From Bacteroidota bacterium (GTDB lineage Bacteria > Bacteroidota > Bacteroidia > AKYH767-A > JABDAW01): a DNA stretch of 43,268 nt. The notes under the pieces are model-generated. The model did not search any database, had not been told where the DNA came from, and saw nothing but the letters and a program-made list of their open reading frames with translations. Both the position numbers and the translations under genes were made by a program. Every line of letters starts with the position of its first letter. The first letter of the stretch is position 1. Positions 1-37,945 of this stretch are shown here, piece after piece. Location of the stretch: positions 1 through 43,268 of the forward strand of contig JABDAW010000005.1 in assembly GCA_013288905.1 (NCBI GenBank), read 5' to 3'.

Positions 1-526
1 GAAGACACCTCTCCTTTCTTCCATCGTCATAATTATCTTAGTGTCGTTACTTGTCATTCCCTTTAATGCCTGCAAAAACCCGGGATGCACGGATATGAAT
101 GCCTTGAATTATAACAGTACTGCCGATGAGGACGATGGCACTTGTATTTCTTGCCAGACAAAATCTACAGAGGAGCCTAAAAGTAACGGACTTATTGGGG
201 ATAATAATTATAATGGTGGCACCAATCCTTATTATGATTCCATAATCGTCCAATATTCTATGTACACCTATTTCATAAGCTATAATAGTCCGAAATGCGG
301 AACCAGCAATTGCTCCGTTACTGTGGTGGCTCATAATTTAGTTGGTAAGACGATCACCTTTAGTGGTAATTTCGCCAGTGGATTGAAAGATACCTTTTTC
401 AATTCCATTACTATCCCACCTTATGGGGAAGCTAATCTGGGTGTTCTTTTTTCTATTCCCAGTACCACTGCATGCAGTAATACTTTTATTAACTTTAATC
501 AATTAGGTTATTTCACCTATCATTAA
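1..526 (+). CDS. Cys-rich lipoprotein, tandem paralogue 1 (5'-partial; ATG probably just off the window)
   Basis: Frame is open from base 2 (KTPLLSSIVIIILVSLLVIPFNA-C). It has a lipobox-like FNAC and the motif GCTDMNALNYNSTADEDDGTC shared with the downstream paralogues. Confidence 0.85.
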   Translation, partial: KTPLLSSIVIIILVSLLVIPFNACKNPGCTDMNALNYNSTADEDDGTCISCQTKSTEEPKSNGLIGDNNYNGGTNPYYDSIIVQYSMYTYFISYNSPKCGTSNCSVTVVAHNLVGKTITFSGNFASGLKDTFFNSITIPPYGEANLGVLFSIPSTTACSNTFINFNQLGYFTYH

Positions 527-544
527 ATCCTGTTTCCAAACCCA

Positions 545-1072
545 ATGAAGACACCTGCCTGTTCCTTAATCCCTGCTATTCTTCTAATGTCGTTAGCAGG
601 TCTTCTTTCTGTTGGTTGCAAACAAAAGGGATATGCAGATAACAGTGTCTTAAATAATACCAGCAGCATCGAGGCGAGTGATGACTCCTCGCAGAATTGC
701 CCGACAAGATCCATCAAAGGAGATTCAACTGCAAATTTTTTAATAGATAATAACTATGCCAATGGTACCAATCCTTATTATAAAAAAGATGTCGCCATGA
801 TCTATTATACCACTAACTTTATTAGTTATAATAATCCGAAATGCGGCAGCAACTTCTGCACTGTTTCTTTAATGATTCAAAACCTGATTGGCAAGACATT
901 TTCATTCAGCGCCAATTTCAATTATGGCGGCAATGATACGACTATCAAAACCATTACAGTAGAGCCAAACGGGAATACTGACCTCGGAAAAATCTTCGCC
1001 ATTCATTCCATGTCCAGTTGCGAATCTCCCTTTGTCAGCCTTAATCTCCAGGGCACTATCTCTTATCATTAA
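545..1072 (+). CDS. Cys-rich lipoprotein, tandem paralogue 2 (degenerate GCTD motif)
   Basis: Signal peptide plus SVG-C lipobox. Shares NPYY, FISYNNPKCG, IQNLIGKT and C-terminal YH with its neighbours. Confidence 0.85.
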   Translation: MKTPACSLIPAILLMSLAGLLSVGCKQKGYADNSVLNNTSSIEASDDSSQNCPTRSIKGDSTANFLIDNNYANGTNPYYKKDVAMIYYTTNFISYNNPKCGSNFCTVSLMIQNLIGKTFSFSANFNYGGNDTTIKTITVEPNGNTDLGKIFAIHSMSSCESPFVSLNLQGTISYH

Positions 1073-1090
1073 TAAATTAATACACTTACC

Positions 1091-1618
1091 ATGAAGCCAC
1101 CTCTCTCCACCGCCCTCCTCACGATTTTTTCAATTATACTATTAACTATTTCCTTATCCGGCTGCAAACAAAAGGGATGTACAGATAAGAATGCTTTGAA
1201 TTATAATAGTGTCGCGGGGGAGGATGATGGGAGTTGTTTGTATTGCCAAACACAAGTAACCAAGGCTGATACAAATGAATATAGTTTTTTAGATGGTAAT
1301 TATGATAATGGTAATAATCCTTATTACAATAATTACATCGGTAAAGTTTATTCAGTAACAAGATTTATTAGTTATAATGATATTAAATGTGGAAATAATC
1401 TTTGTACTACTTCAGTAATAATTCAAAACTTAATAGGCAGAACATTTTCTTTTAGTGCACGTTTCCAGTTATACGGAATAGACACATTAATCAATAATAT
1501 TTCAGTGCCTGCCTTTGGGAATATTAATATTGGTAAAACCTTTTCTTTGCCTTCATTAACTAATTGTGGTGCTAATAATGTTGATTTTTTTATATCAGGG
1601 ACATTTATTTATCATTAA
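1091..1618 (+). CDS. Cys-rich lipoprotein, tandem paralogue 3
   Basis: LSG-C lipobox; KQKGCTDKNALNYNSVAGEDDGSC motif. Confidence 0.9.
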   Translation: MKPPLSTALLTIFSIILLTISLSGCKQKGCTDKNALNYNSVAGEDDGSCLYCQTQVTKADTNEYSFLDGNYDNGNNPYYNNYIGKVYSVTRFISYNDIKCGNNLCTTSVIIQNLIGRTFSFSARFQLYGIDTLINNISVPAFGNINIGKTFSLPSLTNCGANNVDFFISGTFIYH

Positions 1619-1636
1619 TTTATTATACAACTTACC

Positions 1637-2161
1637 ATGAAACCACCACTCTCCACGTCCCTCCTCACCATTACCTTCCTGCTTCTTACTGTCCTTATTC
1701 CAAGTGGCTGCAAACAAAAGGGATGTACGGATAAGAATGCTTTGAATTATGATAATGCTGCCGTAGAGAATGACGGGAGTTGTATTTATTGTGAGACCCA
1801 GGTAACGACGTTACTTTATTTCAGAACAGATATTTATGATAATAATAGTAACAGTCAATATTATAATGTAGAAATTGTTAGTGCTGCTTTTTCATCAGAT
1901 AATCTTAGCTACAATTATAAAACATGTGGTACAGATACTTGCCGGGCTTATTTAACAATGGAGAATTTTATTAATAAGACTATTGATTTTGATTGCGAAA
2001 TCCATTTAGATAGTCCGATGTATTATACTTATACCACACATATTACGATTCCTCCTAATAGTACGCTAAACTTAGGAGAGATTAATTCGGTTCAATCACC
2101 TATAAATTGTGGTGCACCGAGTGGATACATTGCGTTAAGAGATACTATTACCTATCATTAA
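1637..2161 (+). CDS. Cys-rich lipoprotein, tandem paralogue 4
   Basis: PSG-C lipobox; KQKGCTDKNALNYDNAAVENDGSC motif. Confidence 0.9.
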   Translation: MKPPLSTSLLTITFLLLTVLIPSGCKQKGCTDKNALNYDNAAVENDGSCIYCETQVTTLLYFRTDIYDNNSNSQYYNVEIVSAAFSSDNLSYNYKTCGTDTCRAYLTMENFINKTIDFDCEIHLDSPMYYTYTTHITIPPNSTLNLGEINSVQSPINCGAPSGYIALRDTITYH

Positions 2162-2182
2162 TCAAATTATAATATCCTTACG

Positions 2183-2716
2183 ATGAAGCCACTCCATACC
2201 GCCGCCCTCCTTGCCATTGCCATAATGACCTTACTTGCCCTGCTCTGCGGAAGCTGCAAACAAAAGGGATGTACAGATAAGAATGCCTATAATTATAATA
2301 GCACGGCTGACGAGGATGACGGGACTTGCTTATATTGCAAGACGACTTCTACCCCTTGGGGCTCGACAGAAGAAACTCTTAATGATATGAATTATGATAA
2401 TGGTAATAATCCTTTTTATAATGACAGTATAGTCCGACTGACTTTTGTTATAACTTCTACAACTTTTAACGACCCACAATGTGGAATTAATTCTCACAAT
2501 ACTTCTTTAATAATTCAAAATTTAACTGCCAAAACCGTTTCTTTTAATGCTGCATTCTCACTAGCGGGTTGCGGTTATGGCTCAAAAATTTATGCAATAT
2601 CTGTACCACCGAATGGGAGTATTAATCTTGGTTTAATTATTTCAGTTCCAACATCAATATATTGCGGTCCGCCAACAGTAGATTCTACAGTTCCTATAAA
2701 TTTCACTTACAATTAA
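2183..2716 (+). CDS. Cys-rich lipoprotein, tandem paralogue 5
   Basis: CGS-C lipobox; KQKGCTDKNAYNYNSTADEDDGTC motif. Confidence 0.9.
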   Translation: MKPLHTAALLAIAIMTLLALLCGSCKQKGCTDKNAYNYNSTADEDDGTCLYCKTTSTPWGSTEETLNDMNYDNGNNPFYNDSIVRLTFVITSTTFNDPQCGINSHNTSLIIQNLTAKTVSFNAAFSLAGCGYGSKIYAISVPPNGSINLGLIISVPTSIYCGPPTVDSTVPINFTYN

Positions 2717-2728
2717 TCAAACCTTACC

Positions 2729-3253
2729 ATGAAGCCACCCTTCTCCACCGCCCTCCTCGCCATTACCCTCCTGCTTCTTACTATCCTTATTGCAAGTGGC
2801 TGCAAACAAAAGGGATGTACGGATAAGAATGCTTTGAATTATAATAGTGCTGTCAATGAAGATGATGGGAGTTGTGTGTATTGCCATACAGAATCAATAT
2901 TTGAAGGAAATCAATCTTATAATTCGAAAGATTACAATACTTCAAGTCAATATTATAATATGAATGTTGTAAAGTTTACATATACCAATTACTACATATC
3001 CTTTAATATTAAACAATGTGGATCTGATTTTTGCAAGACTTCCGTAATTATTCAAAATTTAACAAGTAAAACAATTAATTTTTCTTGTGAATTTAATTTA
3101 GTGCCAACTCAGATAGTTACAACTCATAATAATATTACAATATCTCCAAATGAATCAATAAATTTTGGTGTAATTTTTTCCATTCTTTCAACTTCAATTT
3201 GTGGTGCGCCTCAAGTTGAAGCCTTTATACTTGGGACTTTCTCTTACCATTAA
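2729..3253 (+). CDS. Cys-rich lipoprotein, tandem paralogue 6
   Basis: ASG-C lipobox; KQKGCTDKNALNYNSAVNEDDGSC motif. Confidence 0.9.
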   Translation: MKPPFSTALLAITLLLLTILIASGCKQKGCTDKNALNYNSAVNEDDGSCVYCHTESIFEGNQSYNSKDYNTSSQYYNMNVVKFTYTNYYISFNIKQCGSDFCKTSVIIQNLTSKTINFSCEFNLVPTQIVTTHNNITISPNESINFGVIFSILSTSICGAPQVEAFILGTFSYH

Positions 3254-27336: not shown

Positions 27337-27609
27337 TTAATTCAATTCATAGTTTTCACAATATGGATCTAATGGGTCATCCACCTCAACCAATTGAATT
27401 TTCATACTCTCAAAAAAATCTCCTACTGTTTGACTGCATCCTTCCTTTATAATATCGTCTAATCCTATTCTACCAAATTGGAAGTCTTCACAAAGTTTCA
27501 ACATTGCTTCTATCGTTTCATCGCTGTAACTTGCAAAGAATTGGTTGTAGAAATACCATTCCAAAGTATCGTAATAATCTATCTTTAATCTTCTTTCTTT
27601 CTTTATCAT
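27337..27609 (-). CDS. Hypothetical acidic protein
   Basis: 90-aa ORF with a TACTTTTG -7 box about 15 nt upstream. Confidence 0.55.
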   Translation of the reverse strand: MIKKERRLKIDYYDTLEWYFYNQFFASYSDETIEAMLKLCEDFQFGRIGLDDIIKEGCSQTVGDFFESMKIQLVEVDDPLDPYCENYELN

Positions 27610-27794
27610 ATTTATATTTAAGGATGCAAAAGTAGGAATCTGTCATCAATCAAATTCTTTCCTGTCATATCATCTACTTTTAAATTAGGAAAAAAGCAAA
27701 ATTAGGAAAAAAGAATATCATTTACGATTTCAAATCTGAAATCGTACATCGTAAATTCTCATTAAAACCGCCTTTTTACACCTGAAAAAAACCG

Positions 27795-28083
27795 CGATGG
27801 ACATTCATCGCCTGTGAATATACATAGAATCCGTTGGAATGTACATTCGCTCGGTTTGAATGTATATTCACTCTTTTGGAATATACATTCACACTCTTTG
27901 AATATACATTACATGGCATGGTAATATACATTCACTCGCTTTGAATATACATTACCTACCCTTGTAATATACATTCATACTCCTTGAATGTATATCCGCT
28001 CGCCTTTAATATACATTCGCTCACTTTGAATATACATTAGCTATGCTTGTAATGTACATTCACACGGCTTGAATGTATATTCA
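27795..28083. repeat. Repeat-spacer array: 14 palindromic cores (G/T)AATRTAYATT(C/A) with 13 different short spacers, period 21-22 bp
   Basis: Cores start at 27795, 27816, 27837, 27858, 27879, 27900, 27922, 27943, 27965, 27986, 28007, 28028, 28050 and 28071. Confidence 0.92.
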
Positions 28084-28134
28084 GACGCGTTTTTCGTCTG
28101 TTCATAGTATTTTGATTGATGGCATGAATAAAAG

Positions 28135-28174
28135 AAGCCCCCGAGTGCCATATAATTTGTGGCATCGGGGGCTT
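28135..28174 (-). terminator. Terminator-like hairpin downstream of 28191-29045
   Basis: AAGCCCCCGA(G)TGCCA..TGGCATCGGGGGCTT with a T-rich tail on the minus strand. Confidence 0.75.
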
Positions 28175-28190
28175 AAAATTCTTGTCTGAA

Positions 28191-29045
28191 TTAAACAATA
28201 GGAGCTACACGAACTCTGATTGCAGGATGAAAACCTTCGGGTCCATGAGCATCGCATAACTGATAACGCACCCAGACATAATTGCCCGGAATCAAGCCTG
28301 TCAAAGTAGCATGGTTATAAATAGTAGGGTCCATTCTTATCCAATTAATATTATCAACACTATACCAGTTATCGTAGCAACAAGTTCCTACGCCGGTGAT
28401 GAAAGTCATATCAACTTCGCCCGGCAGTTTTCCAGATGCAGCATCCCAGGTAGAAGCATGATTTCCGCCTACACCTTTTACGTGAAACCCGCCTGACTGT
28501 ATGATCACAATGCTATTTGCCTTGTTTGCCGGGAGGTCGGCAAAGGCTTGGAATTTCGCCATAAAAACTTCGAGAGCCGCCACCGCAAGATCAAGAGTTA
28601 CCTTACGTGCTGCACCATGCGCTTTGTTATAATTTTCTATCAAATCGCTGGCAGCATCGAGGTCAATAACCAAGAGAGAAACATACTCGTTTCCGGTGCA
28701 TTTCGTAACGATTCCATTCATCAAAACCACCGCTTTGCCGTGATTGTGAGGAATGACCAGATAGGCTTCCACGCTGGCATTAGGATTCGGGAGGATTGAC
28801 AAGATAACGGGCATTCCACGCTCGATTTTCAGTCCCTTTCCACGACCGAAATCGAGGATGATAGTAACCATTTCGAAGCCGGGGGTACGTCTCAATTTAG
28901 CAGCAGCCTTTCTGCCCTGCCAAGTGTTCGGGAATCTAAATTTCGGCTGTTTTACTTTCACAACAGCTCCTTTTTTGGCAACCACTTCTGTCCACTCAAG
29001 GAGGAAGCTCAATACAACGATTACAAGGGTTACAATTTTTTTCAT
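28191..29045 (-). CDS. Uncharacterised protein: helical domain plus C-terminal fibronectin-type-III-like domain
   Basis: C-terminal Y..WYS.D..NW..TLTGLIPG.YVWVRY..GPEGF Fn3 pattern; homologous to the 34197-34726 relic. Confidence 0.8.
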   Translation of the reverse strand: MKKIVTLVIVVLSFLLEWTEVVAKKGAVVKVKQPKFRFPNTWQGRKAAAKLRRTPGFEMVTIILDFGRGKGLKIERGMPVILSILPNPNASVEAYLVIPHNHGKAVVLMNGIVTKCTGNEYVSLLVIDLDAASDLIENYNKAHGAARKVTLDLAVAALEVFMAKFQAFADLPANKANSIVIIQSGGFHVKGVGGNHASTWDAASGKLPGEVDMTFITGVGTCCYDNWYSVDNINWIRMDPTIYNHATLTGLIPGNYVWVRYQLCDAHGPEGFHPAIRVRVAPIV

Positions 29046-29217
29046 TTTTTTTTAAATTTTAAATTATTAATATTATTTCTCGGGATTTATAAACTCGGAT
29101 TGCATTCAGTAGGAGTCCCATTCGCACTTACCAGTTTACCAAACCGCAGGAGGAAGTATCAAATAATTTGATGGGACAAAATTAGAAAACTAATTGGAAT
29201 AAAAGAATCGAAAGATT

Positions 29218-29274: not shown

Positions 29275-29338
29275 AATTAGGAATTACGAATTAGGAATTA
29301 GGAACATACCACGCACCCTAATTCCTAATTCCTAATTT
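29275..29338. repeat. Inverted heptamer repeats (AATTAGG)n...(CCTAATT)n
   Basis: AATTAGGAATTACGAATTAGGAATTAGG ... CCTAATTCCTAATTCCTAATT. Confidence 0.75.
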
Positions 29339-34196: not shown

Positions 34197-34726
34197 CTAT
34201 TGACAGATGCAATATGCACTGTAAATCCATGCGCCGGGACCATTACTATCATTCATCCTGAATCGAAACCAATATTTGGTGAGCTGAGTCAAGCCACTGA
34301 CCAGGATTTTCGCCCTGTTAGTGGTGCCGCAGCCTATCCAGGCAATGTTATCTGTAGTAAGTTGATATTCATAAGCTTTTCTTGGTCCTTAAAGATTTCC
34401 CGATTACTTTAATCGTTCCGGTCAATTTTCCCCAGGTAGCTGCTAAAGGCGCTTTAGGCGTCCTTGTATGAACAATAACTTTAAAATTCGAACTTACGAT
34501 AATAGCTTCAGCAATTTCCACTGTTAATGCAGCGTTTGCAAGTCCCTGAACCCAGGCTAATAAGGCTATCAAATCCAATTCTACCTGGTTCATGGCACCA
34601 TCGCGAAGTTTAGTAGCTCCTTTTTCATCATTATTCGCTTTTGTTTGCAATTTTCCAAGGGCTATAAGGTCAGTATTTAATCCCGCAAGACCGCTCCATA
34701 CAGGTGTAAAGTAAAAAAAAGCACCT
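34197..34726 (-). pseudogene. 5'-truncated, frameshifted paralogue of the helical+Fn3 protein at 28191-29045
   Basis: Reads YFTPVWSGLAGLNTDLIALGKLQTKA...GKSLRTK, then after a frameshift near 34378 KAYEYQLTTDNIAWIGCGTTNRAKILVSGLTQLTKYWFRFRMNDSNGPGAWIYSAYCICQ*. There is no ATG before the upstream in-frame TAA. Confidence 0.8.
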
Positions 34727-34934: not shown

Positions 34935-35333
34935 AAAAACAACCGTTTCGACTACAATCCGAACCGTCTGAACTATAAACCCTTCGTCGTAAGCTATAAA
35001 CCGAACCGCGTACGCCATAGCGCGCTCCGCGTTAGCTATAAACCGAACCGCGTGCATTATACGCCGAACCCGCTATACCATAAGCCGAACCCGCTATACC
35101 ATAAGCCGAACCGCGTGTACTATACACCGAACCCGCTACACCAGAAACCGAACCGTCTGCATCATCCGGCGAACCCGCTACACCATAAACCGAACCCGCT
35201 ACACCACAAAATGAACCCTCTGAACCCCAAACCGAACCCGCTCACCTACAAACCGAATGGTATTGCTTACAACCCGAACAGATTCAGCATGAAACCGAAC
35301 CGCCTCGACCTCAGGATGAACCGACTCGCTACT
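34935..35333. repeat. 21-bp-period array, 19 units, consensus AAACCGAACC(CG/GC)CTNCAC(C/T)AT
   Basis: Units in exact phase from 34935 to 35313, with a conserved CCGAACC half and a variable half. Confidence 0.92.
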
Positions 35334-35968: not shown

Positions 35969-36035
35969 CTGTTCACTATTCACTATTCACTATTCACTAT
36001 TCACTGTTCACTATTCACTATTCACTATTCACTGT
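35969..36035. repeat. Heptamer tandem repeat (TTCACTA/G) x about 9
   Basis: CTGTTCACTATTCACTATTCACTATT... Confidence 0.9.
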
Positions 36036-36265: not shown

Positions 36266-37945
36266 ATGAAAGAGATTAATAAATCAATTGCAGCGATGAT
36301 AGCATCTATGCTTATGCTGCTGGCTCCGGCTCTTTTGCTGTTGAGCCTTTCGAATAAATGTTCTGCACAAGCTAATTTTCTTGTTCCATCTATATATTCA
36401 GATGTTTCTGCTGGTGGTCCAGGAGGGCATACAAATTGTGACGTTAAACAAGATTACATTGGGGATACTGTTTTGGCGTGGGTAAGTCCTGATCATCTCA
36501 ACTGGGCATATAATGGATATACTGGTTCAACTGGATTTCAACATGCAGGTTCAAATTATTTCTCTGATGTAGCAATTTCAATTGATGCAAGTTCTAATCA
36601 TAATGTTTGGATCATGGTTGTTTACTATTCTCACCCTGATTATTATTTGGAAACCTATGAATGGAATTCCATATCACACATGTTCAATTATAACGCAACA
36701 CTAACGCTTGAATCAACAATTGTCAGATCCCTATTAAGATCAACAATTAATATTGATGAAGAATATGGTAATTTCGTAATTGTATGGCCAGATTCAGTAC
36801 ATCTTAATGCTTGGACTGGTGTCAACGGATCGGCTGGACCAGTTCTTACGGGAAGTTATCAACCACTATACACAAGTATTTCCAGTTCAGATAGTTTTCA
36901 GTATAGATTACCAGACGTTGCTATATACTCAATTTCAACATCTTCACCAGATGTCTATATTAGTTATATTGATAGTGTTAATAATCTTCTTGATGTTGAT
37001 GAATATACATTTTCATCGTCTTCAGGGTTGAGTCTGAATGGTAACATATTTAATACTTCTATCAATGGCATTGCACCTCCTCGAATTGCTTGTGCTCCAA
37101 GACTTAACAGTATACCTGCGAAAAATGAAGATTGGACCGTAGTATGGGCAGATCCTACTACAGATATTATTTATGGCGAAACATATAACATGTATACAAA
37201 TACAGGTTATTCCAATATTTATACAGATTTATGCACCACAGATATTGACTTGGCAACAGAGCAAAATTTTGATCCTGTGGTTACTTATTCATCAAGCTAT
37301 AATATAACTGGAAGTGGTGCAGGAGGAATAATGGTTGCCTGGATTACTTATGGCATAGATCCTTCTAAAGTTTGGCAACCTTTTCCATATTTCTATGGCA
37401 GAGTACCATTAGCAGAAAAATGTGATGTAACTGGTGCTGAAGTAACAAATTGTAATTATCTGGTTATCCCTACAAATCAGAATACAGATTGGTTGGATTA
37501 TCAAATTGCTATTTCGCTCGCAGGCAGAGATTATCCCTGGGTAGCATCCAGCAATGATGATATTTTTTATGTATGGGATGCCGGAGTTGTCAATAGTACA
37601 TTGGTTGAATCTCTTGAAAGAAAAGAAATAACATATTCTGGTGGTAACAGCAGCAGTGACTGGCGAAAGCAAAATAATATGCAAACAAATCAAATTCTAA
37701 ATGGTGTATATCCTAATCCAAGCACTGGTACTTTTAATCTGAATGTTCAATCAGAAATTGGAGAGACGATAAAGATTGAAATCTTTAATTCACTGGATCA
37801 GGAAGTGTATTCTTCTGAAGAAGAATCAAGATCAACATTCTATACAAAAGCTATTGCATTAAAGAACTATAGTGAAGGTATTTATTTTATAAGAGAAACA
37901 GGCAGCACTACTACAAACAACTGGAAAATTGCAATAACAAATTAA
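36266..37945 (+). CDS. T9SS type A sorting-domain protein, unknown beta-rich passenger
   Basis: Signal peptide ending CSA-Q; CTD VYPNPSTG.F..IFNSLDQ..GIYFI..KIAITN. Confidence 0.9.
   Translation: MKEINKSIAAMIASMLMLLAPALLLLSLSNKCSAQANFLVPSIYSDVSAGGPGGHTNCDVKQDYIGDTVLAWVSPDHLNWAYNGYTGSTGFQHAGSNYFSDVAISIDASSNHNVWIMVVYYSHPDYYLETYEWNSISHMFNYNATLTLESTIVRSLLRSTINIDEEYGNFVIVWPDSVHLNAWTGVNGSAGPVLTGSYQPLYTSISSSDSFQYRLPDVAIYSISTSSPDVYISYIDSVNNLLDVDEYTFSSSSGLSLNGNIFNTSINGIAPPRIACAPRLNSIPAKNEDWTVVWADPTTDIIYGETYNMYTNTGYSNIYTDLCTTDIDLATEQNFDPVVTYSSSYNITGSGAGGIMVAWITYGIDPSKVWQPFPYFYGRVPLAEKCDVTGAEVTNCNYLVIPTNQNTDWLDYQIAISLAGRDYPWVASSNDDIFYVWDAGVVNSTLVESLERKEITYSGGNSSSDWRKQNNMQTNQILNGVYPNPSTGTFNLNVQSEIGETIKIEIFNSLDQEVYSSEEESRSTFYTKAIALKNYSEGIYFIRETGSTTTNNWKIAITN

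Follow-up and report, generated by a model that had tools for sequence, protein, structure and literature searches.

Tandem arrays with a 21-bp period adjoin genes of an unannotated basic helical and Fn3 protein family in Bacteroidota and Myxococcota

Clustered regularly interspaced short palindromic repeat (CRISPR) arrays consist of repeats of ~23-55 nt separated by unique spacers of similar length, and TIGR-Tas systems of tandem interspaced guide units with a Nop-domain Tas protein. Iteron and centromere arrays, such as parC-ParR of R1, sopC-SopB of F and the omega heptads of pSM19035, lie adjacent to the gene of their binding protein; repetitive extragenic palindromic (REP) elements have one sequence per genome, occur singly or in pairs, and are paired with RAYT, an HUH enzyme. 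Minisatellites, or variable-number tandem repeats (VNTRs; e.g., MIRU), are intergenic tandem repeats subject to unit gain, loss and homogenization, and LytTR-type sites are 9-bp direct repeats 12 bp apart, with a 21-bp period, two or three copies and a conserved consensus. Here we describe a tandem array with a 21-nt period at positions 27795-28083 of a 43,268-nt stretch of DNA from a Bacteroidota bacterium (assembly GCA_013288905.1, contig JABDAW010000005.1, positions 1 to 43,268; the whole stretch is hereafter the window), together with the adjoining gene P0001, which an initial annotation made from the sequence alone had picked out as a possible new system. The partnership of array and gene is real and spans two phyla, Bacteroidota and Myxococcota, and we tentatively favor, at chances that fall a little short of even, a reading in which such arrays are helically phased elements that act at the DNA level and are coupled to a novel family of basic helical and Fn3 proteins. 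Four features define the locus, where TAnnTTTG is the Bacteroidetes -7 consensus:

27795-28083, no strand assigned: tandem array of 14 units (13 clear, one degenerate), period 21 nt with three 22-nt units.
28191-29045, minus strand: family gene P0001, 284 aa, pI 9.28, with an N-terminal hydrophobic helix, a K/R-rich stretch, a four-helix region and a C-terminal Fn3 domain.
28135-28172, minus strand: hairpin of P0001 resembling an intrinsic terminator (-27.9 kcal/mol, z -6.7), followed by UUCUUUUAUU.
28084-28134, minus strand: 51-nt gap between the gene's terminator and the array, with no TAnnTTTG box and no significant fold.

The array and the helical and Fn3 gene do belong together, and as a pair they correspond to no known system, as the initial annotation had supposed. 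A search of 60 relatives with P0001 as the single query gave 11 matches in its own genome, 15 apiece in two congeneric genomes, and five and one in two other genomes of the order, with no match in the remaining 56 relative genomes. Homologues without neighboring arrays had been named in advance as the evidence that would count against the pairing, and they are the minority: among 30 fetched homologous loci, Tandem Repeats Finder (TRF) detects a period-21/42 array beginning 16-292 nt past the stop codon in 24, while two of the other six carry an upstream array and four have no TRF array. The unit sequence differs in every one of these arrays. All four metagenomic relatives, at 70-75% identity, likewise have a downstream array of period 21/22, two of them (L235 and L237) retaining the window core ATGTATAT. 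A profile search of 1.84 billion representatives returned 318 proteins at E<=1e-30 and 1752 at E<=1e-10, many of them 205-212 aa long and corresponding to the core helical and Fn3 form (~205 aa, against 277-337 aa in the window's genus), and all named members that were looked up are annotated "hypothetical protein." The family is present in 4 of 400 sampled other genomes of the phylum; of the eight loci in these four genomes, which belong to other families of the class, six show an upstream array of 21/42 nt. GTDB contigs scanned with alignment A3 yielded 60 further loci, mostly from Polyangiaceae or other Myxococcota metagenome-assembled genomes in which the family is multi-copy; it has 19 and 17 matches in two Polyangiaceae genomes, and the family-positive genomes include complete ones (G227 and G139). 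Arrays of 21/42/63 nt were called by TRF within ~700 nt in 24 of these 60 loci, and autocorrelation over lags 12-33 peaks at lag 21 in 37 of 49 loci, for the most part 60-500 nt ahead of the gene, in a set that is mostly Polyangiaceae with other Bacteroidota loci and that excludes 11 matches (five partial ones at contig ends and six weak, Fn3-only ones). No family member was found in viral contigs (alignment A3), in plasmid or phage collections (query P0118) or by PADLOC. A full-text literature search, which left subscription journals and supplementary files outside its reach, returned no description of 21-nt arrays or of this family. The near-constant presence of such an array beside family genes in two phyla suggests that the pairing of DNA element and protein is an undescribed one.

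Within the window's own genome, an iterated family hidden Markov model (HMM) recovers 28 members or fragments: 11 of a long type with the array at the 3' end, 11 of a short type with the array at the 5' end, and six without an array. An array is touched by 22 of the 27 kept family genes compared with 420 of 2148 other genes (odds ratio 18, p 1e-11), and 26 of 264 arrays, as opposed to none of 264 random sites, have a family-like fragment no more than 1.2 kb away, from which it follows that about nine in ten arrays are solitary. Furthermore, arrays are retained even where the adjacent family genes have drifted to 20-30% identity.

The window array is indeed not special to P0001, as is clear from TRF counts across its genome (2.64 Mb in 209 contigs, 58.7% complete; arrays with at least four copies and a period of at least 9 counted). 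A period of 21 accounts for 212 arrays, 42 for 30, 22 for five, 43 for two and 41 for three, and all remaining periods together for 37. When merged, they form 264 arrays with a total of 51.9 kb, or ~1 per 10 kb, typically of ~7-11 units and ~200 bp (length quartiles 147/198/232 bp), with 31 of the 264 at contig ends. That the array under study is one of so many, ~90% of which have no family gene nearby, had escaped the initial annotation. The single period makes up more than 85% of arrays in two phyla whose G+C contents are 37% and ~70%, and random samples of three Polyangiaceae genomes contain two, three and zero arrays in 140, 140 and 120 kb. Units are homogenized within arrays, at up to 95-99% matches; between arrays, a comparison of 207 units gives clusters of only 2-6 members at a threshold of at least 16/21 positions, and the arrays thus make up no regulon. 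In 115 of 218 arrays, dyad symmetry is stronger than in any of 20 permuted controls.

Several attempts to find a common denominator beyond the period were not successful. Matches of units to single-copy targets elsewhere number 189 against 38 for shuffled units and give no clear target set, with most of the first 40 matches, and a part of the full count, coming from one heptamer repeat, (TTCACTA)n. As a universal flank motif, GTCTCC falls short, being found near 32 of 264 arrays where ~15 are expected by hand estimate. Other gene clusters that flank arrays align to the family with hhalign probabilities of 1% or less, apart from one three-member cluster at 65.6%. A separate multi-copy element, with two short 21-nt arrays ~150 nt apart and a common flank (gatgtctccc aaatttttgg...), constitutes a repeat family of its own, with copies in the own genome at C1:4280-4603, C1:26306-26601, C1:39445-39781, C119:5867-6166 and C23:19733-20082.

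The arrays occupy a characteristic position relative to genes. Of 223 arrays, 73 lie between divergent genes, in comparison with 281 of 1966 background intergenic regions (odds ratio 2.9, p 8e-11), with a nonsignificant depletion between convergent genes, and the gene ends that face an array are 5' in 297 cases and 3' in 190. The gap from array to ATG has a median of 229 nt and includes a TAnnTTTG box in 145 of 272 cases, the last such box being located ~37 nt before the ATG, which places the arrays upstream of promoters. An array is found at the 5' side of 37 of 137 genes with a C-terminal domain of the type IX secretion system (T9SS), compared with 240 of 2038 other genes. In long-type loci the array is followed by a promoter and a co-oriented next gene in 14 of 19 extended loci, and in a short-type locus it precedes the gene's own -7 box. 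The proteins encoded downstream are diverse, the 10 that were scanned comprising four T9SS cargo proteins, an outer membrane protein barrel, AAA_21-type ATPases, TPR and CapR/DUF4379 proteins and one without a family. The window array conforms to this arrangement, for the two TAnnTTTG boxes ahead of the next open reading frame (ORF) place it upstream of that promoter region:

27764-27811, minus strand: tail past the array, with a weak hairpin (the degenerate last unit), a U7 run and the T-tract unit caggtgtaaaaaggcggtttt.
27627-27704, minus strand: two TAnnTTTG boxes (27627-27634 and 27697-27704) ahead of the next ORF.
27337-27609, minus strand: ORF P0002, 90 aa, downstream of the array, with no family match.
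29177-29184, minus strand: TAnnTTTG box upstream of P0001.

The tail is conserved among paralogues of the window's genus, at 86-89% identity as against 72-76% for coding sequence, and continues there from T-tract units to a -7 box ahead of the next gene.

Array and family also co-occur across genomes. When random stretches of 14-140 kb per genome were scanned for 21/42-nt arrays, eight of nine genomes with clear family matches gave arrays (3 in 34 kb, 19 in 80 kb, 2 in 100 kb, 2 in 100 kb, 2 in 80 kb, 1 in 93 kb, 2 in 140 kb and 1 in 140 kb), whereas none of 11 profile-negative genomes did (0 arrays in 470 kb). A hand-computed hypergeometric test gives p 7e-5, or 2e-4 if G030, which has one weak partial family match and no array in 40 kb, is taken as positive. 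Among the sampled genomes, arrays are thus found almost only where the family is present, a co-occurrence that we regard as suggestive.

At higher resolution, the window array is a series of diverged copies of one unit rather than a succession of repeats and spacers. TRF calls it at 27801-28083 with period 21, 13.3 copies and 68% matches, as well as with periods 43 and 85, both of which score above 21, and a pattern scan places 13 GAATRTAYATTC-type cores in 27816-28071, consecutive cores being 21 nt apart in nine instances and 22 nt in three, with a degenerate fourteenth copy in register at 27795 (8/12 core positions matching), so that the 14 copies counted initially are all recovered. The gene-strand unit is TGAATGTATATTCAAAGCGAG-like, and its sequence has no other occurrence in the own genome. 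The core is not strictly palindromic: GAATATACATTC and GAATGTATATTC, which are reverse complements of one another, are both present in the array. The CRISPR-like framing of the initial annotation, with 13 different spacers, does not survive, since the spacers are diverged versions of a single RCTCGCTTT-like consensus. The three 22-nt junctions of the form ATTA(C/G)-N8-GTAAT were found exactly as described, after cores 6, 8 and 12 of that count, and their arms and spacer length do shift together; what falls away is their independence. Units 5, 7 and 11 are mutually nearest, at edit distances of 3-5 in comparison with 5-10 to the remaining ten units, and the presence of covarying junctions in such close relatives, along with the higher scores of periods 43 and 85, points to a few events copied as a 43-nt double unit. 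Judged by unit similarity, the three junctions are hence not independent compensations and form part of a 43-nt higher-order repeat.

By sequence criteria the arrays are noncoding, show no strand preference and are DNA-level rather than RNA elements. A decayed heptad-repeat coding sequence was considered and rejected: no frame stays open through the shift of the 22-nt units, ORFs that cover arrays run past them by a median of just 121 nt, and unit variability has no 3-nt periodicity (0.474 vs. a null of 0.502 in 104 arrays). Among 26 family arrays, the gene-strand RNA folds better in 12, and of 105 co-directional contexts 43 favor the sense strand and 61 the antisense strand. In the window array the gene-strand RNA does fold far better (-105.1 kcal/mol, z -14.5, vs. 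-80.6 kcal/mol, z -7.8, for the opposite strand), because plus-strand A-C mismatches become G-U pairs. Gene-strand folding is no better than that of shuffles for the arrays of L007, L015 and L026, and neither strand exceeds shuffles for L007, L015 and L013; moreover, the arrays of paralogues L018 and L026 are homologous yet inverted, with their tails keeping one orientation. The strong hairpin and U-run of P0001 stand between gene and array, and no Bacteroidetes -7 box is present between terminator and array. Together, these observations disfavor the processed small RNA proposed at the outset, and of the three mechanisms then offered the phased multi-operator scaffold, with a spacing of two helical turns, provides the best fit.

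The adjoining protein is as first described, a 284-residue product with a helical domain and an Fn3-like C-terminus whose gene has the array just past its terminator. Its AlphaFold2 model, computed from 38 aligned relatives (predicted local distance difference test, pLDDT, 85.9), comprises an N-terminal helix, a four-helix region (residues 102-184) and a C-terminal seven-stranded Fn3-type (PF00041) beta-sandwich (residues 188-279; Foldseek E 2.3e-5, TMt 0.62; VIA Z 12.1, root-mean-square deviation 1.9 over 85 aligned residues). P0001 has no family in Pfam, NCBIfam, PHROG or PADLOC, and by sequence Pfam fn3 rises above its cut-off in P0069 alone (28.7 vs. 25 bits). Modeled by itself (pLDDT 83.4), the helical domain gives generic bundle matches, the best of them to talin (VIA Z 7.6, root-mean-square deviation 3.0, 89 residues) and below the tool's meaningful level for helical proteins; Pfam, NCBIfam and PDB profile searches detect no ribbon-helix-helix (RHH) or helix-turn-helix (HTH) fold. 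Phage proteins of ~260 aa from BFVD, aligned over ~230 columns, are unconvincing relatives (TM 0.27). The family is basic, with a median pI of 9.0 compared with 6.7 for other genes (p 0.002) and a range of 9.0-10.6 for all 28 short-type proteins of alignment A2, which is compatible with nucleic-acid binding, though no fold supports it.

Comparison with the related genome G002 illustrates the pace at which these regions change. At the positional orthologue, the A2M neighbor is 78-81% identical and the 5' untranslated region plus ~22 codons of the family gene 81%, whereas the rest of that gene is at 36% amino-acid identity and its array is unrelated to the window's; downstream of A2M, too, the own genome and G002 carry unrelated arrays. 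Paralogues share only their 5' parts, which for L006 and L014 amount to just the first ~270 nt. The replacement of gene 3' parts and arrays beside kept neighbors indicates modules in fast-changing mosaic regions. Synteny itself ends at window positions 28978 and 33858 (G002:C54), with ispH on another contig in G002. A second array, which the initial annotation did not mention, sits 5' of a broken family-gene remnant in the same window:

34996-35257, no strand assigned: second array of the same class, period 21, 10.6 copies, unit ATAAACCGAACCGCGTACACC.
34200-34725, minus strand: frameshifted family-gene remnant, with HMM positions 85-174 and 175-228 in two frames.

Other repeats in the window include a heptamer array, (TTCACTA) x 8.9, at 35972-36033 upstream of a T9SS-tailed gene (36266-37945); exact runs of at least three copies of this heptamer number 29 in the own genome, and three heptamers equal 21 nt. 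At 29275-29337, where the family gene and the A2M gene diverge, (AATTAGG) x 4.3 and its inverted copy (CCTAATT) x 3 make up a hairpin, a motif with ~40 short matches in the sister genome G001 and seven runs in the own genome. At positions 2-3253, six ORFs of 174-177 aa each follow one another in the same orientation and resemble a tandem paralogue cluster. Pfam identifies LytB, S1, A2M, PRTase, OTCase and Por_Secre_tail among 10 neighbor proteins, so that the window carries housekeeping genes; it has no Rfam match at gathering threshold and no tRNA or tmRNA by dedicated search.

The genes beside family modules vary by lineage. An ECF-like sigma-70 gene (Sigma70_r2/r4) often precedes the short-type module in G031 (L013 and L017) and in Polyangiaceae (L049, L063 and L064), the same modules may instead have a divergent sigma-54 activator, and several loci have a HEAT-repeat gene upstream; no sigma-like gene adjoins family genes in the own genome. 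In the long subfamily (300-337 aa) a Cys/His-rich protein of 105-120 aa (CxCGN..HWK..C..GC...IIPLC..H) follows the array, downstream of L016, L020, L023, L029 and L034 and, in the own genome, at C25:17216-17542, C3:14110-14472 and C1:45023-45343. It has no match in Pfam or PADLOC, and may bind zinc and nucleic acid. Neither the sigma-type neighbors nor this protein is universal, and no recombinase or transposase was found conserved beside the modules.

In light of these results, we favor with the reserve stated above the reading of the arrays as DNA-level, helically phased elements coupled to the helical and Fn3 family. The arrays would act as double-stranded DNA in which the length of the repeat is constant at 21 bp (two helical turns) and the unit sequence is specific to the locus; a protein bound at 21-bp intervals along one face of the helix would build a nucleoprotein scaffold of ~10 units, and this scaffold would affect the neighboring promoter or the local DNA structure. 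For the role of binding or maintaining the arrays, the helical and Fn3 proteins would be the leading candidates, and the array beside each family gene could be that gene's own cognate or autoregulatory site. We infer, in other words, that a protein binds the arrays, that the family supplies it, and that transcription is the process affected. A more far-reaching version is doubtful, though worth stating: a previously unrecognized two-part system, patchily distributed in Bacteroidota and Myxococcota, in which small basic helical and Fn3 proteins would read, build or maintain 21-bp-phased satellite arrays, hundreds of them in a genome and every one different in sequence, as sequence-independent nucleoprotein scaffolds ("satellite chromatin") upstream of about one gene in eight, in particular genes for secreted proteins.

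A number of observations weigh against the favored reading. Arrays outnumber family genes by ~9:1 and their units are nearly all unique, which makes one cognate protein per array impossible, while a sequence-independent binder would not explain the dyad symmetry; L236 and L238, whose proteins are 74% and 70% identical to that of the window, carry unrelated units. No nucleic-acid-binding fold or motif was found in the family protein, Fn3 domains are usually extracellular, and P0001 and several paralogues have a hydrophobic N-terminal helix that could be a signal or membrane anchor. Autocorrelation shows no 10/11-bp A/T half-period inside the units, and classical curvature or wrapping signals are therefore absent. 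In 5 of the 19 extended loci the next gene is oppositely oriented, which leaves no promoter after the array there. Finally, the genomes of the co-occurrence comparison are mutually related and their samples small, and G003, with four family matches by profile, has no array in its 41-kb random sample, although two of its four family loci do carry 42/43-nt arrays.

Foremost among the alternatives is a special process of repeat expansion whose products would have little or no function, which we consider unlikely but still a serious contender. Selfish or neutral minisatellites would be seeded in dispensable, fast-turnover intergenic DNA by a lineage-specific process, such as hairpin-promoted slippage or a factor with a 21-nt step, and the family would be either its agent or a passenger of the same islands. 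Units unique to each locus and homogenized within arrays are what concerted evolution would give, and the 43/85-nt higher-order structure of the window array, the replacement of the array and most of the family gene at the syntenic G002 locus with unrelated arrays after A2M, the 31 arrays at contig ends, and the failure to find a common motif or target all fit such an origin. Against it, the dominance of one period across two phyla of such different base composition, the narrow distribution of array lengths around 200 bp, the enrichment upstream of genes and beside T9SS cargo genes (37/137 vs. 240/2038), and the persistence of arrays beside family genes at 20-30% identity indicate constraint. 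Locus-specific operators, with each paralogue binding as a dimer to the dyad units of its own array and controlling the adjacent promoter in the manner of ParR-parC or omega, are improbable. They would account for the dyad-symmetric units in about half of the arrays, for the basic proteins, and for the order of gene, array, promoter and next gene in 14 of 19 long-type loci with the short-type array ahead of its own promoter; related proteins also have related units in some instances (TCGTTAT-like cores in L018, L012 and L026, and the window core kept in L235 and L237). They are contradicted by the excess of 264 arrays over 28 family genes or fragments, ~90% of arrays having neither gene nor remnant nearby, by the lack of regulon-sized unit groups, by the unrelated units of L236 and L238, and by the failure of searches to find an HTH or RHH fold.

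Quite improbable, in turn, is an RNA-level role in which the array would be transcribed as a chain of ~13 hairpins (7-bp stems, 7-8-nt loops) and processed to small RNAs of ~21 nt or used to scaffold the adjacent protein. The superior folding of the window's gene strand, the U7 run after its array, and the long inverted repeats and T-run that bracket the arrays of L016, L020, L022 and L028 would suit it, but other arrays show no strand preference or fold like shuffles, homologous arrays are inverted, a strong terminator with no promoter box after it precedes the window array, most arrays lie upstream of promoters or between divergent genes, and Rfam gives no match. We hold it to be very improbable that the arrays are recombination or boundary sites of exchangeable, attC-like cassettes that replace the gene's 3' part together with the array. 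The end of G002 homology ~22 codons into the gene, with remainder and array both different, the sharing of only the first ~270 nt between L006 and L014, the occurrence of inverted arrays, and the resemblance of units to inverted arms around a short center, pointed out in the initial annotation, are all in keeping with exchange of this sort, yet arrays have ~10 units rather than single sites, no universal flank motif, and no recombinase or transposase conserved beside them. A guide array of the CRISPR, TIGR or VIPR kind, or a decayed heptad-repeat coding sequence, is scarcely credible: the regular period, the uncharacterized neighbor gene and the equivalence of 21 nt to seven codons invite the thought, but unique spacers are missing, as is any cas or Nop-type domain, the accessible part of a 2026 survey of periodic intergenic clusters does not mention a 21-nt period, and the frame-breaking 22-nt units and missing codon periodicity speak against coding.

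If the coupling is functional, bacteria in two phyla would devote ~2% of their DNA to cis elements defined by length and not by sequence, served by a dedicated, unannotated protein family; this would amount to a new principle of promoter-upstream or chromosome organization and to a new DNA- or repeat-associated use of the Fn3 fold. Since every array differs in sequence, searches based on sequence clustering cannot find them, and a periodicity-based survey of other genomes could reveal many more. Even if a special mutational process is what generates the arrays, their constant step of 21 bp would still indicate a molecular ruler.

Set beside the known systems, the array class shares with CRISPR, TIGR and VIPR a strictly periodic noncoding array next to a gene at first uncharacterized. 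In the 2026 survey, 96.1% of periodic intergenic clusters have periods of 60-79, 18 or 5 nt, the range to which those guide arrays belong and which differs from the 21 nt found here. The arrays described here further differ in having no unique spacers, leader, promoter or strand bias and in flipping orientation. With respect to CRISPR in particular, the entire unit measures 21-22 nt and the 9-10-nt "spacers" are copies of one consensus, and neither Pfam on the 10 neighbor proteins nor PADLOC detects cas genes; with respect to TIGR-Tas, whose period is given as 18 nt in that survey, P0001 has no Pfam match and its structure searches return Fn3 only. REP elements and RAYTs resemble our system as genome-wide, intergenic and often palindromic repeats that track one gene family flanked by them, but here units are peculiar to each locus, with 207 of them giving clusters of 2-6, and ~10 repeats follow at exactly 21 bp, beside proteins with no recognizable catalytic domain and no HUH Y1 family by Pfam, PHROG or NCBIfam. 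Minisatellites and VNTRs are alike in being intergenic tandem repeats that evolve by unit gain, loss and homogenization, and unlike in that the genome here is dominated by a single period and the arrays accompany one protein family in two phyla. LytTR-type sites have the same 21-bp center-to-center spacing, whereas the present arrays have ~10 copies and no shared consensus. The iteron and centromere arrays are similar in having ~7-12 short, helically phased, often dyad units beside the gene of a small basic protein, and in unit sequences that vary between systems while the architecture is kept; short units at a period of 21, with dyad symmetry in 115 of 218 arrays, are what we observe. Such systems have one or a few arrays per replicon as opposed to 264 in 2.6 Mb of chromosome-like contigs, no ParA/ParM-type partner is seen among the neighbors and the family is absent from the plasmid and phage collections searched, and in place of a detectable RHH or HTH fold the partner protein here combines a four-helix bundle with an Fn3 domain.

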